From a virus, in the UHGV virus genome UHGV-0098755: 64,000 nt of DNA, one strand, 5' to 3'. The notes under the pieces are model-generated. The model was not told the DNA's origin. It saw only the letters and a program-made list of their open reading frames with translations, and made no database searches. Position 1 is the first letter of the stretch. The number at the start of each line of letters is the position of its first letter. Shown here piece after piece: positions 40,226 to 49,115 of this stretch. The translations under genes were made by a program, and so were the position numbers.

Positions 40226-40485
40226 ATACTGGCTTCTTTGAGTTTCGTTTTAGCAATAGTTAACTGATCGAGGCTTTCGGCGTAATTCTTCGCGAGTTCA
40301 TCATCTTCACAGCTATCAAATGCTTCCCAAAATTCATCGTATAAAGCATCAAAGATAAGTCCTAAACGAACTTCAGCGTCTTTAATAGCATTTACTTTAC
40401 CGATTTTTTCGTCGGTATGTGGCTTATAACCTTTAATATCTTCAATCATATTTGACTTCCTCACCAGTACATAAATCGTATTCAA
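40183..40485 (-). CDS. Hypothetical protein (vs.4 slot; candidate Acb2-type position)
   Basis: 100-aa ORF; positional inference only. Confidence 0.4.
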
Positions 40486-40663
40486 CTAAACGAATAGGTT
40501 CATGAATGCCATATCCTTGAACAGAAATTTCTGTCGTAGGATAAATTCCATTAATATCACCCATGTTCCATGCTTCGTTAAATTGCTGTTCGCCTGAATT
40601 ACTAAACCATTCGGCGAAAGCATTTAGCACATCTTCAGAACCTTCAATAATTATCTTTGCCAT
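40442..40663 (-). CDS. Hypothetical protein (vs.5 slot)
   Basis: 73-aa ORF. Confidence 0.4.
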   Translation of the reverse strand: MAKIIIEGSEDVLNAFAEWFSNSGEQQFNEAWNMGDINGIYPTTEISVQGYGIHEPIRLVEYDLCTGEEVKYD

Positions 40664-41025
40664 TACAAACTCTCGGTAAAGGTACGAGCGATAACGTCGC
40701 GCTGCTGTTCCGGAGTCAGAGAGTTAAAGCGAACTGCATAACCGGATACACGGATGGTCAGCTGCGGATATTTTTCCGGATGCTTAACTGCATCTTCCAG
40801 AGTTTCGCGACGCAGAACGTTAACGTTCAGGTGTTGACCACCTTCAATTTTAACTGTAGGTTGTGTTTCAATTTCAATTTCACGGGCATGCAAACCATAG
40901 AAAATTTCTGGGTCTACAAAAGAGTCCTCTTTAAAGGTTTTAGAAACGATAATTCGTGCTTGAATACCATCTTCAAAATAAATAGTACCTTTATGTGTGC
41001 CTTCAAGAATTTGATATGCTTTCAT
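40663..41025 (-). CDS. Autonomous glycyl-radical cofactor (GrcA/YfiD-like)
   Basis: 120-aa ORF; C-terminal half almost identical to E. coli GrcA as recalled, including glycyl-radical motif [13 protein letters not shown]. Confidence 0.9.
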
Positions 41026-41032
41026 ATAAACC

Positions 41033-41362
41033 TCAATTAGAAAATAAATTTATCCAAGATTGTTCTTTAATTAAAAATGGCTCAGAATCATATGCCATTA
41101 AACTTTGGGTGATTAGTCCTTTAAAAGGCCCATCAATAAATTCCATGGTAAAATATGGAATTTTATTCATTAGCCGTGCATTAGGAGCAGTGCACAAAAC
41201 TCTGCATCCTTTGAATACGCCTTTTTGTAATTTGTATTGCTTAGGATAAAATTCGCTCAAAATGTTATTTTTTGCCAAAATTTCAAAATGATTCACCAAT
41301 TTATTTTTAATAGTTTTTGGTGAAAAATAAAGATATTCGAAAAGCTGAGTGTCTGTCATCAT
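41033..41362 (-). CDS. Hypothetical protein translationally coupled to upstream P-loop gene
   Basis: ORF 41033..41413; likely start at ATG 41360-41362 overlapping upstream TGA (ATGA). Confidence 0.45.
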
Positions 41363-41946
41363 TGCATTCCGATTACGAAAAACTGTGGACGAGTAATACC
41401 ACCAATGCAACATTTAATATTACAGCAGCAGTGTACAGTGTCAATATGGACACTATAAATCTTATCCATATCAGGAGATTTGACAGGCTCATCAATTATA
41501 TATAAAATTCGCGAAAGCTTTAAACCTCTGAACTTGCTTCCTTTATTACCGATAAAACTGCGCACAGAATCAGTAAATAAACGAAAACGTATATCATCAT
41601 TAGAATAACGCGAAAATTCCTTTTTGATGCTATTTGCAGAAATTTTAGCGTAAGCTGAAGTATTAGAAAGAACAATAACTGTTCCACCGTCATACAACCA
41701 ATTAGCGGCAAAATTAGTTACTGCAGTTGATTTACCGGATTGACGTCCACCATCTAGTCGAAGTGTGCAATACTGTTTGAGTAAGTCTTCAAATGGTGGG
41801 ATATAATCGTTTTTACAAATTTCTTCTACTCTAGCATCAGAATGGTGTGTAAAAGCATTCATCAGGGATAGATAAGGACCAGTTAAAAATGTTCTCATTT
41901 TGTTATCTCTAAATTTGGGCCATTCCGTGGCGCGTGAATTGTCCAT
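41359..41946 (-). CDS. P-loop NTPase with cysteine-rich N-terminal segment
   Basis: 195-aa ORF; Walker A GGRQSGKST, Walker B ILYIIDEP; cysteine cluster HCCCNIKCC near the N-terminus. Confidence 0.5.
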   Translation of the reverse strand: MDNSRATEWPKFRDNKMRTFLTGPYLSLMNAFTHHSDARVEEICKNDYIPPFEDLLKQYCTLRLDGGRQSGKSTAVTNFAANWLYDGGTVIVLSNTSAYAKISANSIKKEFSRYSNDDIRFRLFTDSVRSFIGNKGSKFRGLKLSRILYIIDEPVKSPDMDKIYSVHIDTVHCCCNIKCCIGGITRPQFFVIGMQ

Positions 41947-42049
41947 TTCTGTATTTACCCATTACCGCACTTGGGCTCGACCTTATTACAGGTTGGCGGG
42001 AATCCCTCACAGAATCATGAGGTCCAGCTTGTTCCCATGTTATTTGAAT

Positions 42050-42073
42050 GTAAATAGGCCTAAGTATAGGCCT
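42050..42073 (-). terminator. Hairpin after ipIII
   Basis: AGGCCUA...UAGGCCU inverted repeat right after the stop codon. Confidence 0.5.
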
Positions 42074-42075
42074 TA

Positions 42076-42654
42076 TTAATTACCACGGGCTGCATTAGCA
42101 ACGGCATAAGCGTACTGAACATTAGCGTCCTTAAACGTACCTTTAGAGGTATCTATTTCTGCCTTAAAGCCGCCTTTAGCCATAACATCGGCAAATTCTT
42201 TACGGAAAGCCATTGCATCAAGACCTTTCCATGATGATTTGTGCTTAGCGAATTCAAGACCAGCGTAGTTGACAGCCTTAGCTAATTTATTATCAATGAC
42301 CCATTTACCGGCTTTAGGCACAAACTTCGGGCCTTTTTGTTTAGAGAACAGTTTTAAATTCCAGCGACGAAGGTCACTGTCGGCTTTAACAAAAGCTGCG
42401 TCTAAGTTACTAGCAACAACATCTTCAATATGAGCAAATTTAAGTCCGTCAACTTCAATATTTAGATCGTTACGCCAGCGAAGTCCTTCCCAAGCGAAGG
42501 CTTTAAAGTCGGAAGCCTTTGTAGCTAAGTACCGTTCAATAGGAGCTGTTTTAGGGTCAAAGCCGTTTCCCGATCGGTAGGTCCACTCATCTTTATTAAT
42601 GCCTTTGGCCTTTACTATAGAAGCTTCGGCAATAAATTCTTGATAGGTTTTCAT
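42076..42654 (-). CDS. ipIII: Internal protein III (capsid-targeted)
   Basis: 192-aa basic ORF beginning MKTYQEFIAEA (capsid targeting sequence); length close to T4 IPIII. Confidence 0.8.
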   Translation of the reverse strand: MKTYQEFIAEASIVKAKGINKDEWTYRSGNGFDPKTAPIERYLATKASDFKAFAWEGLRWRNDLNIEVDGLKFAHIEDVVASNLDAAFVKADSDLRRWNLKLFSKQKGPKFVPKAGKWVIDNKLAKAVNYAGLEFAKHKSSWKGLDAMAFRKEFADVMAKGGFKAEIDTSKGTFKDANVQYAYAVANAARGN

Positions 42655-42677
42655 GTGTTTCCTTGTTTGTTTTGATA

Positions 42678-42716
42678 GAGTAATTATACCATATTAATAC
42701 TTAAGCGTAAACCGTT
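42678..42716 (-). promoter_or_regulatory. T4-type early promoter upstream of ipIII
   Basis: GTTTAC (42707-42712), TGGTATAATTAC. Confidence 0.7.
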
Positions 42717-42976
42717 TAAGCTTTACCGCCAGAAATAATTCCGAAGTTGTTAAAATCATATCCAATATCGTCAACATCTACTTTAGGACTTGCTACAACA
42801 TAAGCAATTTCACTACGTTTTGCACAGGTGTTGATTTCTTTACCATCGCCACCTAAGAAAGAATACCCATTACGTTTTAATGAGCCAAAGTCTTCCGCAT
42901 CACCAATGAAAGCTTTAACTTTAAATTTAGAACCTTTGGCATCTGCTTCAACGATAAATTCTTGATACATTTTCAT
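42716..42976 (-). CDS. Internal-protein-like small protein with capsid targeting sequence
   Basis: 86-aa ORF beginning MKMYQEFIVEA; own early promoter upstream. Confidence 0.65.
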   Translation of the reverse strand: MKMYQEFIVEADAKGSKFKVKAFIGDAEDFGSLKRNGYSFLGGDGKEINTCAKRSEIAYVVASPKVDVDDIGYDFNNFGIISGGKA

Positions 42977-43107
42977 TTTTCCTTAGTAAATTGATTTACC
43001 AAAGTATTTGTACCAAGTCGGACGTTGATCAATTTTTTCATCTAAGCGTGCTTGATTTATCGCAATGGACGCTTCGGACGGGTCATAATTTCCTCCAAGT
43101 AGTTGAT

Positions 43108-43145
43108 GAATATATAGTATCAAAACCCTTGGAGGAAGTAAACAA

Positions 43146-43146
<1 letters not shown>
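43108..43146 (-). promoter_or_regulatory. T4-type early promoter inside the denV remnant
   Basis: GTTTAC (43138-43143), 17 nt, GATACTATATATTC. Confidence 0.65.
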
Positions 43147-44386
<1,240 letters not shown>

Positions 44387-48287: not shown

Positions 48288-48363
48288 TGGTCGAGGCAGT
48301 AGGGATCGAACCTACGACCCAGGACTTAGAAGGTCCTTGCTCTTCCTTCTGAGCTATGCCTCG
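48288..48363 (-). tRNA. tRNA-Arg (anticodon UCU), CCA encoded
   Basis: Hand-folded cloverleaf: acceptor CGAGGCA/UGCCUCG, anticodon loop CUUCUAA, T-arm GGUUCGAUCC. Confidence 0.85.
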
Positions 48364-48367
48364 TATT

Positions 48368-48442
48368 TGGCGGACGTGATAGGATTCGAACCTATAACCA
48401 ATCGCTTAACAGGCGATCGCTCTGCCATTGAGCTACACATCC
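48368..48442 (-). tRNA. tRNA-Asn (anticodon GUU), CCA encoded
   Basis: Acceptor GGAUGUG/CACGUCC, anticodon stem AUCGC/GCGAU, loop CUGUUAA, T-arm GGUUCGAAUCC. Confidence 0.8.
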
Positions 48443-48446
48443 AAAT

Positions 48447-48534
48447 TGGTGGGGAGTGATGGAGTCGAACCACCCGAGTCGCAATGACAATGGATTTACA
48501 GTCCACACCGCTACCTCTACGGGATAACTCCCCA
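48447..48534 (-). tRNA. tRNA-Tyr (anticodon GUA), type II with long variable arm, CCA encoded
   Basis: Acceptor GGGGAGU/ACUCCCC, anticodon loop CUGUAAA, long extra arm, T-arm GGUUCGACUCC. Confidence 0.8.
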
Positions 48535-48543
48535 AATTAATTT

Positions 48544-48617
48544 GGTGGCCCTGGGTGGAATTGAACCACCATCTGGCGATTATGAGTCGCTTGCTTGAAC
48601 CTTCCAGCTACAGGGCC
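48544..48617 (-). tRNA. tRNA with anticodon CAU (Ile-lysidine type or Met), CCA encoded
   Basis: Acceptor GGCCCUG/CAGGGCC, anticodon loop CUCAUAA; T4 tRNA-Ile is known to carry CAU. Confidence 0.75.
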
Positions 48618-48618
48618 T

Positions 48619-48694
48619 TGGTGCTGATTGACGGAATCGAACCGCCGACCTTCTCATTACAAGTGAGTTGCTCTACCTACTGAGCTAAATCAGC
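48619..48694 (-). tRNA. tRNA-Thr (anticodon UGU), CCA encoded
   Basis: Acceptor GCUGAUU/AAUCAGC, anticodon loop CUUGUAA, T-arm GGUUCGAUUCC. Confidence 0.8.
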
Positions 48695-48699
48695 AAAAC

Positions 48700-48789
48700 T
48701 GGCGGAGGCGATAGGATTTGAACCTATGAGTCGCCGGAGCGACTGCCGGTTTTCAAGACCGGTGCATTAAACCACTCTGCCACGCCTCC
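48700..48789 (-). tRNA. tRNA-Ser (anticodon UGA), type II, CCA encoded
   Basis: Acceptor GGAGGCG/CGCCUCC, anticodon stem CCGGU/ACCGG, loop CUUGAAA, long variable arm. Confidence 0.85.
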
Positions 48790-48791
48790 AG

Positions 48792-48865
48792 TCTCCATAC
48801 AAGGATTTGAACCTTGGACCTCCTGATCCCAAATCAGGCGCTCTACCAAACTGAGCTACACGGAG
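48792..48865 (-). tRNA. tRNA-Pro (anticodon UGG), CCA not encoded; 2 nt from tRNA-Ser (dimeric precursor arrangement)
   Basis: Acceptor CUCCGUG/UAUGGAG, anticodon stem CCUGA/UCAGG, loop UUUGGGA. Confidence 0.8.
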
Positions 48866-48875
48866 TAAATTAAAT

Positions 48876-48949
<74 letters not shown>

Positions 48950-48954
48950 AAATT

Positions 48955-49041
48955 TGGTGCGAGAAGTGGGACTCGAACCCACAAGGAAATCATTCCGCAG
49001 CATTTTAAGTGCTGTGCCTTTACCAATTTGACCATTCTCGC
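48955..49041 (-). tRNA. tRNA-Leu (anticodon UAA), type II, CCA encoded
   Basis: Acceptor GCGAGAA/UUCUCGC, anticodon stem CAGCA/UGCUG, loop CUUAAAA, long variable arm. Confidence 0.85.
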
Positions 49042-49042
49042 G

Positions 49043-49115
49043 CTGGGAATAAAGGACTCGAACCTTTGCATCTAGCAGTCAAAGTGCTATGCCTTACCAA
49101 CTTGGCTAATTCCCA
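49043..49115 (-). tRNA. tRNA-Gln (anticodon UUG), CCA not encoded; 1 nt from tRNA-Leu
   Basis: Acceptor UGGGAAU/AUUCCCA (U1-A72), anticodon stem UAGCA/UGCUA, loop CUUUGAC. Confidence 0.85.

Follow-up and report, generated by a model that had tools for sequence, protein, structure and literature searches.

Two adjoining open reading frames of 195 and 109 aa on the minus strand of a T4-like phage genome are almost certainly the orthologues of the T4 early genes vs.8 and vs.7, and the vs.8 product is, by its predicted fold and motifs, a stand-alone, minimal P-loop ATPase. Sequence profiles place its nearest characterised relatives among the ATPase cores of T4-type large terminases; vs.8 is related to the terminase ATPase core and is not itself a terminase. 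Both genes are already catalogued T4 early genes, and the ATPase family relationship has already been published. The genes of the window are ordinary orthologues of annotated T4 genes, and the main added value of the analysis lies in a corrected start codon, a reassessed cysteine loop, the position of denV and a conserved upstream element. What is chiefly new here is this non-coding, deeply conserved element, which spans ~115 nt and lies upstream of vs.8. The explanation that best covers the material as a whole, and that we would accept about as readily as doubt, is that vs.8 is a terminase-like ATPase acting as an early accessory host-interaction or counter-defence factor, with vs.7 as its partner.

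Identity, start and order of the genes

The window, by which we mean the whole stretch of 64,000 nucleotides that was analysed, comes from a T4-like phage: bases 40600-42700 are 97.5% identical at the nucleotide level to Tequatrovirus genomes, for example Lutter and 235Ecol030PP. Two minus-strand ORFs are found here, one at 41359..41946 (195 aa) and a second at 41033..41413, or at 41033..41362 if read from an internal start. The coding features that we assign are as follows.

41359..41898, minus strand: vs.8 coding sequence in its probable true form, 179 aa plus stop, starting at Met17 (MRTFLTG...), as judged from homologue starts and ~97% T4 identity.
41899..41946, minus strand: 16-codon upstream extension of the 195-aa ORF, probably an untranslated leader; in another frame in T4, with an 8-nt indel.
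41033..41362, minus strand: vs.7 coding sequence, 109 aa plus stop (MMTDTQ...), 100% identical to T4 vs.7.
41359..41362, minus strand: ATGA stop/start overlap of vs.8 and vs.7 (TGA at 41359..41361, ATG at 41360..41362).

Three lines of evidence establish the identity of the pair. First, the nucleotide identity of the region is high, as given above. Second, vs.8 and vs.7 share the identical 4-nt overlap in the T4 annotation. Third, T4 proteins aligned to the window by tblastn give 100% identity for vs.7 and 90.8% for the annotated form of vs.8; over the vs.8 core, counted from the alignment, there are five differences in 179 aa (~97% identical). The profile matches agree. The vs.8 ORF matches PHROG 1488 (E 3e-79) over residues 19-195 of its 195-aa form, with T4 synteny kept, and vs.7 matches PHROG 2049 over its full length (E 3.6e-54) from a position directly downstream of vs.8. 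The flanking genes recovered by tblastn keep the T4 order, namely vs.6, vs.5, vs.4, vs.3, regB, vs.1 and vs; vs.8 and vs.7 form the head of a vs.8-to-vs.3 early gene block. An earlier, sequence-only reading had set the two ORFs in the vs.7/vs.8 slots; they are not newcomers there but vs.8 (~97% over the 179-aa core) and vs.7 (100%) themselves.

By sequence comparison, the vs.8 protein is most likely 179 aa long and starts at 41898, the 195-aa length being probably over-extended. Most vs.8 homologues begin at the residue equivalent to Met17, and the 48 nt lying 5' of this codon are conserved with T4 as DNA and are read there in another frame, with the 8-nt indel falling just before Met17. The vs.7 protein is likewise the 109-aa form that begins MMTDTQ, not the product of the 126-aa ORF.

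The same reading had the pair lying immediately upstream of a disrupted denV locus. The disruption is real, and a 42-codon C-terminal remnant persists at 42986..43111. The adjacency is not: the remnant lies ~1 kb away, separated from vs.8 by ipIII (42076..42654) and by an 86-aa ip-like gene (42716..42976).

The ATPase core of vs.8 and its relation to the large terminase

The P-loop NTPase assignment rests on three motifs of the vs.8 protein, each of which aligns to a counterpart in the T4 large terminase gp17.

41728..41751, minus strand: Walker A or P-loop, GGRQSGKS, of the terminase type RQxGK[ST]; aligns to gp17 SRQLGKT.
41524..41529, minus strand: invariant Arg-Gly pair (R124-G125 in the 179-aa form) before the Walker B strand; aligns to gp17 R245-G246.
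41485..41508, minus strand: Walker B with the catalytic Glu, ILYIIDEP; aligns to gp17 D255-E256.

In 30 homologues, with identities down to 39%, the Walker A motif, the Arg-Gly pair, the Walker B Glu and a C-terminal G..Q are invariant, and the Walker B Asp is nearly so; the Walker motifs persist to identities of about 35-40%. Because the Walker motifs are invariant or nearly invariant across this set, they are not a chance occurrence. An AlphaFold2 model of vs.8, built from 29 sequences, reached a pLDDT of 82.8 and a pTM of 0.83, and in its predicted topology a pair of N-terminal helices leads into a core where five strands alternate with helices. The P-loop comes after the first core strand (residues 45-49) and precedes the helix at residues 56-69, and Walker B is carried by the fourth strand (residues 131-136). 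The NTPase claim, first based on the Walker A and B motifs, is upheld by their conservation in the 30 homologues, by the five-strand core and by a terminase profile match of 95.7% probability. The sequence-only reading had also considered that the ORFs might prove to be conserved T4 ORFs devoid of an NTPase fold: conserved T4 ORFs they are, and the NTPase fold is present. From these features, we consider it quite probable that vs.8 binds ATP; having bound it, the protein would probably hydrolyse it as an oligomer.

General searches placed vs.8 only broadly. Nothing above threshold was returned for it by Pfam, NCBIfam or PADLOC, the Pfam family Terminase_6N reaching E 0.038, below the family cut-off. 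Foldseek against the PDB matched the model to generic RecA-like cores (RecD, helicases and the P74-26 and phi29 packaging ATPases) with TM values of ~0.45-0.53 and E at best ~1e-3, and Foldseek against predicted viral structures matched it to small uncharacterised ATPases of other large phages.

The link to the terminase comes from profiles. The sole annotated PHROG family matched by vs.8 is PHROG 2, the terminase large subunit (E 2e-6). An hhalign comparison of 35 unique vs.8 sequences, taken from 36 loci, with an alignment of 61 T4-type terminase N-domain sequences drawn from IMG/VR loci gave a probability of 95.7% and E 9e-9, placing vs.8 residues 31-155 on gp17 residues 141-274 at an identity of only about 16%. 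All three motifs fall in register in this alignment: RQxGK[ST], the Arg-Gly before Walker B and the D-E pair. Two results weigh against a specific terminase link. Foldseek scores RecD, helicases and terminase ATPases alike (TM ~0.45-0.5, E >=1e-3), and when the vs.8 family profile was run in one pass against PDB sequences, it did not reach gp17 and returned no terminase, with a best E of 0.1 or worse. The relationship had been described in a paper of August 2026, in which vs.8 is an uncharacterised ATPase-like protein homologous to the T4 terminase's ATPase domain (PMC13601566), and our profile link independently confirms that report.

Two further parts of the vs.8 core can be read against the terminases. 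In the P74-26 terminase, the position of the Arg-Gly pair holds a proven trans-acting arginine finger, and T4 has an arginine there too (PMC5727402); by analogy, the vs.8 Arg-Gly may be equivalent to this trans-arginine finger. The final strand of vs.8 ends in G-M-Q, which possibly sits where terminases carry the coupling motif ([ST][ST]T; TTT in gp17), the hhalign alignment itself stopping earlier, at residue 155. The likeness ends with the core. The protein terminates at residue 179, straight after the core sheet, and representative relatives (n=57) are all 66-259 aa long. It is because vs.8 has neither the lid subdomain nor the C-terminal RNase-H-like nuclease domain that we do not regard it as a terminase.

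The proposed partner vs.7 and the possible role of the pair

Stop of vs.8 and start of the next gene overlap or abut in all 36 loci compared (the window and 35 IMG/VR loci). What follows vs.8 is a vs.7 homologue in 30 of them and a truncated or frameshifted one in two more; a vs.5-like gene directly follows vs.8 in L020 and L039, and L036 and L038 have no recognisable vs.7. A phage collection likewise holds vs.8 in 1010 records and vs.7 in 930. The two-component unit earlier proposed from the ATGA overlap is supported by this tight linkage in nearly all relatives. On its own, the overlap is weak evidence for a special unit: such overlaps are routine, and in the equivalent 8 kb of T4 they occur at eight of 19 gene junctions. 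Nor does a physical complex of vs.8 and vs.7 follow, since overlaps are common in the region and vs.8 occurs without vs.7 in a few phages. We envisage vs.7 as a partner of vs.8, possibly a co-made partner or adaptor.

For the vs.7 protein itself, word-indexed searches for homologues brought back few sequences, no match was found in Pfam, PDB sequences (with a 13-sequence profile), NCBIfam or PADLOC, and the literature searched yielded no function. Its conserved core of ~50 residues contains two GPxKG turns (Y.F..GPFKG......AP...LMN..P.F..EFI.GP.KG....SLI.YD), preceded by N-terminal helices that are variable or absent among homologues. The AlphaFold2 model is moderate (pLDDT 77), and its top Foldseek matches, to Spt5 KOW, ribosomal KOW proteins, NdhS, WYL and SH3, are non-significant (E >0.2, TM ~0.3).

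The block headed by vs.8 includes vs.4, a cGAMP sponge also called Acb2, and vs.3, the type IV Thoeris sponge TadIV-1, so that two of its six genes are proven immune-signal sponges. Engineered relatives tolerate the loss of ~7 kb reaching from pin to vs.7; the Lutter vs.8 carries a frameshift; and the T2 gene carries two 2-nt deletions, one of them at a T-run near Lutter's frame break. Given that the pin-vs.7 region can be deleted and that vs.8 is frameshifted in Lutter and T2, the vs.8/vs.7 pair is most likely dispensable and accessory, set among counter-defence genes. We propose that vs.8 would serve at an early stage of infection in host interaction or counter-defence, as a dispensable factor resembling the terminase ATPase.

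Evidence for contact with host immunity comes from a single study, in which vs.8 had a toxic effect on co-expression with the terminase sensor EcAvs2, and AlphaFold 3 modelling placed vs.8 in the EcAvs2 terminase pocket (PMC13601566). This published toxicity suggests that EcAvs2 can recognise vs.8; vs.8 is one of the few known non-terminase triggers of a terminase-sensing bacterial immune receptor. A counter-defence role proper is a tentative proposal that we think somewhat more likely to fail than to hold. In the sole reported assay, vs.8 activates EcAvs2 rather than blocking it. Furthermore, when a plasmid with the native T4 vs.8 promoter was used to express Vs.3-Vs.8 individually, only Vs.3 was reported to impair type IV Thoeris. 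A passive decoy also sits poorly with a catalytic Glu and an Arg that are strictly conserved, since this suggests real enzymatic turnover, needless for a decoy. Proof that vs.8 and vs.7 work as a counter-defence pair would explain why a second, truncated copy of a packaging ATPase is kept in T4-like phages, and would add a decoy-type strategy against NLR-like sensors.

The main rival takes that conservation at face value. It holds vs.8 to be a working nucleic-acid-directed ATPase, for example a small translocase or a remodeller at work in DNA or RNA transactions of the early phase, with vs.7 as a small beta-barrel adaptor that binds nucleic acid, and regards the anti-defence neighbourhood as incidental. 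All catalytic residues are invariant, the best structural matches of vs.8 are to the RecA-like domains of RecD, other helicases and packaging ATPases, and the KOW, SH3 and WYL barrels that top the vs.7 list are often nucleic-acid binders. The conservation of Glu and Arg favours this accessory ATPase over a passive decoy. Overall, we judge it unlikely, though the strongest of the alternatives: vs.8 has a single RecA-like core and lacks both a second domain and any recognisable DNA-binding element, the frameshifts in T2 and Lutter and the deletable region argue against an essential role, and the vs.7 fold matches remain above E 0.2.

A role in the phage's own packaging, in which vs.8 joins or caps gp17 oligomers or binds the small terminase gp16 through a shared ATPase interface, seems distinctly improbable. 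It would draw on the homology of vs.8 to the gp17 ATPase core and on the Arg-Gly retained where one terminase has its trans-acting finger. The gene nevertheless belongs to an accessory operon of the early class, far away from where the late packaging genes lie, and is dispensable, and vs.7 is unrelated to gp16 or gp17, showing no similarity to either or to the terminase N-domain.

The cysteine run of vs.8 invites a different reading, and the features concerned are these.

41407..41433, minus strand: HCCCNIKCC, residues 172-180 of 195, in a variable C-terminal loop.
41417..41444, minus strand: promoter-like site TTGACA-16-TAATAT within the coding region of the cysteine loop, found by consensus scan with 10/12 matches.

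Five Cys and one His fall within nine residues, and the run exists as the sequence-only reading described it; it lies near the C-terminus rather than the N-terminus, and is not conserved enough to define the protein. The counterparts are HYCCNSKCC in T4 and HCCCCNIKCC at locus L006, which differ in how many TGC repeats they have. At 62-88% identity, relatives retain just H-C-C...C, and homologues at 35-56% identity have 0-1 Cys with every ATPase motif kept. The lowest-confidence segment of the AlphaFold2 model (residues 162-167, pLDDT <50) lies within and just after the run. We infer that the loop is specific to this lineage and that a (TGC)n repeat encodes part of it. The idea of a conserved metal site was rejected because the run is lost below about 60% identity, varies in length and is modelled with low confidence. 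It is correspondingly very improbable that the cluster binds a metal or iron-sulphur centre and makes vs.8 a redox-linked NTPase, maybe tied to the glycyl-radical protein vs.6: the density of Cys and His, the GrcA-like vs.6 two genes downstream and the persistence of H-C-C...C among relatives of at least about 62% identity speak for it, and against it stand the loss of the cysteines from homologues that retain all ATPase motifs, the low-confidence loop whose length varies through the TGC repeat, and the absence of radical-SAM or known cluster spacing. As a separate observation, a position matching the promoter-like site is annotated as a promoter in phage Lutter, and the site is also present in T4 and lost beyond close relatives.

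Scarcely credible is the notion that a frameshift has split one gene into the two ORFs, or that they are a toxin-antitoxin-like pair, as the 4-nt overlap and the label 'endoribonuclease', attached to both in some database records, might suggest: in all 36 loci the ORFs are separate and have their own conserved ends (...GMQ* and MMT...), a finding that rejects the single frameshifted gene, vs.8 occurs without vs.7, vs.7 is unlike RegB, and a plasmid with vs.3-vs.8 can be cloned in E. coli. The RegB-type endoribonuclease was discarded as a candidate for vs.7 when BLASTP against the window's RegB gave no meaningful alignment and Pfam and NCBIfam gave no match.

The conserved leader and comparison with known systems

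The stretch between ipIII and the vs.8 start contains the following non-coding features.

41915..42030, minus strand: conserved non-coding element of ~115 nt, single copy in the window (nhmmer E 1e-27).
41919..41931, minus strand: hairpin GCCA-CGGAA-UGGC within the element, with compensatory stem variants.
42056..42073, minus strand: terminator-like hairpin after ipIII, bounding the vs.8 leader (consensus scan).

With nhmmer, the element was detected in every one of the 35 IMG/VR vs.8 loci but L036, as well as in T4, T2 and Lutter (E 1e-17 to 1e-38). Its conservation extends far beyond that of the proteins, and it is kept whatever gene lies upstream, ipIII in the window and denV in T4. The hairpin, GCCA-NGGAA-UGGC in general form, is located ~20 nt before the start codon and occurs with the stem variants GGCA/UGCC, CAGCA/UGCUG and GACA/UGUC; in a second hairpin, ACCU...AGGU is replaced by GCCU...AGGC. 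Four loci have an internal-protein gene inserted, with the full element ahead of that gene and a partial 3' copy ahead of vs.8, an arrangement that looks like a recombination joint.

The element has no match in Rfam, none in E. coli genomes and no second copy elsewhere in the window; its single-sequence fold is no better than that of shuffles (z = 0.36), and RNAalifold gave a weak consensus of three short hairpins. A promoter of the sigma-70 or T4-early type (GTTTAC at -35) was set aside, as the -10 is not conserved and T4 and the window have no -35, and coding sequence was ruled out by indels of 1 and 2 nt. The most far-reaching proposal, which we put forward as a speculation with a small chance of being right, combines the leader with the genes. 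Here, vs.8 and vs.7 would be an early terminase look-alike module that engages or blunts terminase sensors (of the Avs1-3 or Upx classes), EcAvs2 having later evolved to use it as a trigger, and the vs.8-to-vs.3 operon would be controlled by the ~115-nt leader, whose GGA-loop hairpin would be part of a new regulatory RNA or recombination cassette.

Four known systems provide the comparison. The closest is T4 itself. T4 Vs.7 (NP_049731; PHROG 2049) is an identical protein in the same position, with no difference found, and Pfam PF26834 is listed for its relatives. T4 Vs.8 (NP_049732; PHROG 1488) is the orthologue, in the same position and with the same overlap with vs.7; its record annotates a 219-aa form, whose N-terminal 40 residues lie in a frame other than that of the window's extension. 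The T4-type large terminase is the nearest characterised relative of the fold: over gp17 residues of about 141-290, it shares with vs.8, in the same order, the P-loop RQxGK[ST], the Arg-Gly pair and the hhhhDE motif. Gp17 is a late gene product of 610 aa with a lid and a nuclease domain, whereas vs.8 is encoded among early genes and has 179 aa and neither domain. Finally, the non-terminase Avs2 activators Ksap1 and Ksap2 are described as small proteins of phages that have a terminase-ATPase-like sheet, fit into the pocket of Avs2 and trigger it, and as restricted to specific phage taxa, and it is by their description that we liken them to vs.8.

A conserved element upstream of vs.8

The stretch preceding vs.8, which encodes a terminase-like P-loop ATPase, carries a conserved non-coding element that is present in a single copy in the window.

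41915..42030, minus strand: conserved non-coding element of ~115 nt, located 5' of vs.8

The element is also found in the IMG/VR vs.8 loci L005-L039, with the exception of L036, as well as in Lutter (L001), L002 and T2 (L119). It has a higher G+C content than the flanking sequence and is retained even between phages whose vs.8 proteins are just 35-45% identical. A GGA-loop hairpin lies within it, ~20 nt 5' of the start codon, and the changes observed in its stem are compensatory. At four loci, the full element stands 5' of an inserted internal-protein gene, while a partial copy of its 3' portion precedes vs.8. Searches returned no match to the element in Rfam and none in E. coli. Candidate roles include a regulatory leader, a CsrA-type site and a recombination cassette.

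Variation within and around vs.8

In both the Lutter and T2 records, vs.8 is a pseudogene. The Lutter copy (L001, 3260..3846) is frameshifted past ...SVRS, and the T2 copy (L119, 1501..2083) has two deletions of 2 nt each, one of them at a T-run close to the Lutter frame break. T2 is reportedly sensitive to type IV Thoeris even though its homologue of vs.3, the Thoeris sponge gene downstream of vs.8, is functional, and low expression has been put forward as a possible cause (PMC13243611). The disrupted vs.8 might exert a polar effect on the genes behind it.

P0068 and P0083, distant vs.8 relatives that came from the search of representative sequences, carry histidine where Walker A otherwise has its lysine. 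The catalytic glutamate is missing from both, with DV or DC replacing DE. Judged from these substitutions, some vs.8 lineages may retain the fold but not catalysis.

A promoter-like site overlaps the codons of the cysteine run (HCCCNIKCC) in the variable C-terminal loop of vs.8.

41417..41444, minus strand: near-consensus TTGACA-16-TAATAT, upstream of vs.7

The Lutter annotation places a promoter at this site, and its spacer holds a TGC repeat whose copy number differs among relatives.

Neighbouring genes and comparison with T4

Four further features, all on the minus strand, bear on the comparison with T4.

40442..40663, minus strand: vs.5 homologue, a continuous 73-aa ORF
42716..42976, minus strand: short internal-protein-like gene beside the denV remnant, with the capsid-targeting start MK(T/M)Y(Q/S)EF
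42986..43111, minus strand: denV remnant, last 42 codons only, 74% identical to T4
43146..43442, minus strand: short internal-protein-like gene on the other side of the remnant, with the same type of start

The window also has a putative tRNA cluster.

48291..49115, minus strand: ten tRNA-model matches, one only just over threshold (30.2 bits)

T4 itself has eight tRNAs and two small tRNA-like RNAs. The 73-aa vs.5 product is similar to vs.5 of distant phages, whereas the annotated T4 vs.5 (58 aa) matches the window ORF in two frames, over residues 1-17 and 17-58; this split suggests that the T4 reference form may be frameshifted or truncated. Gene order differs as well: the window reads e, internal-protein-like gene, denV remnant, internal-protein-like gene, ipIII, vs.8, whereas T4 reads e, ipIII, ipII, denV, vs.8.
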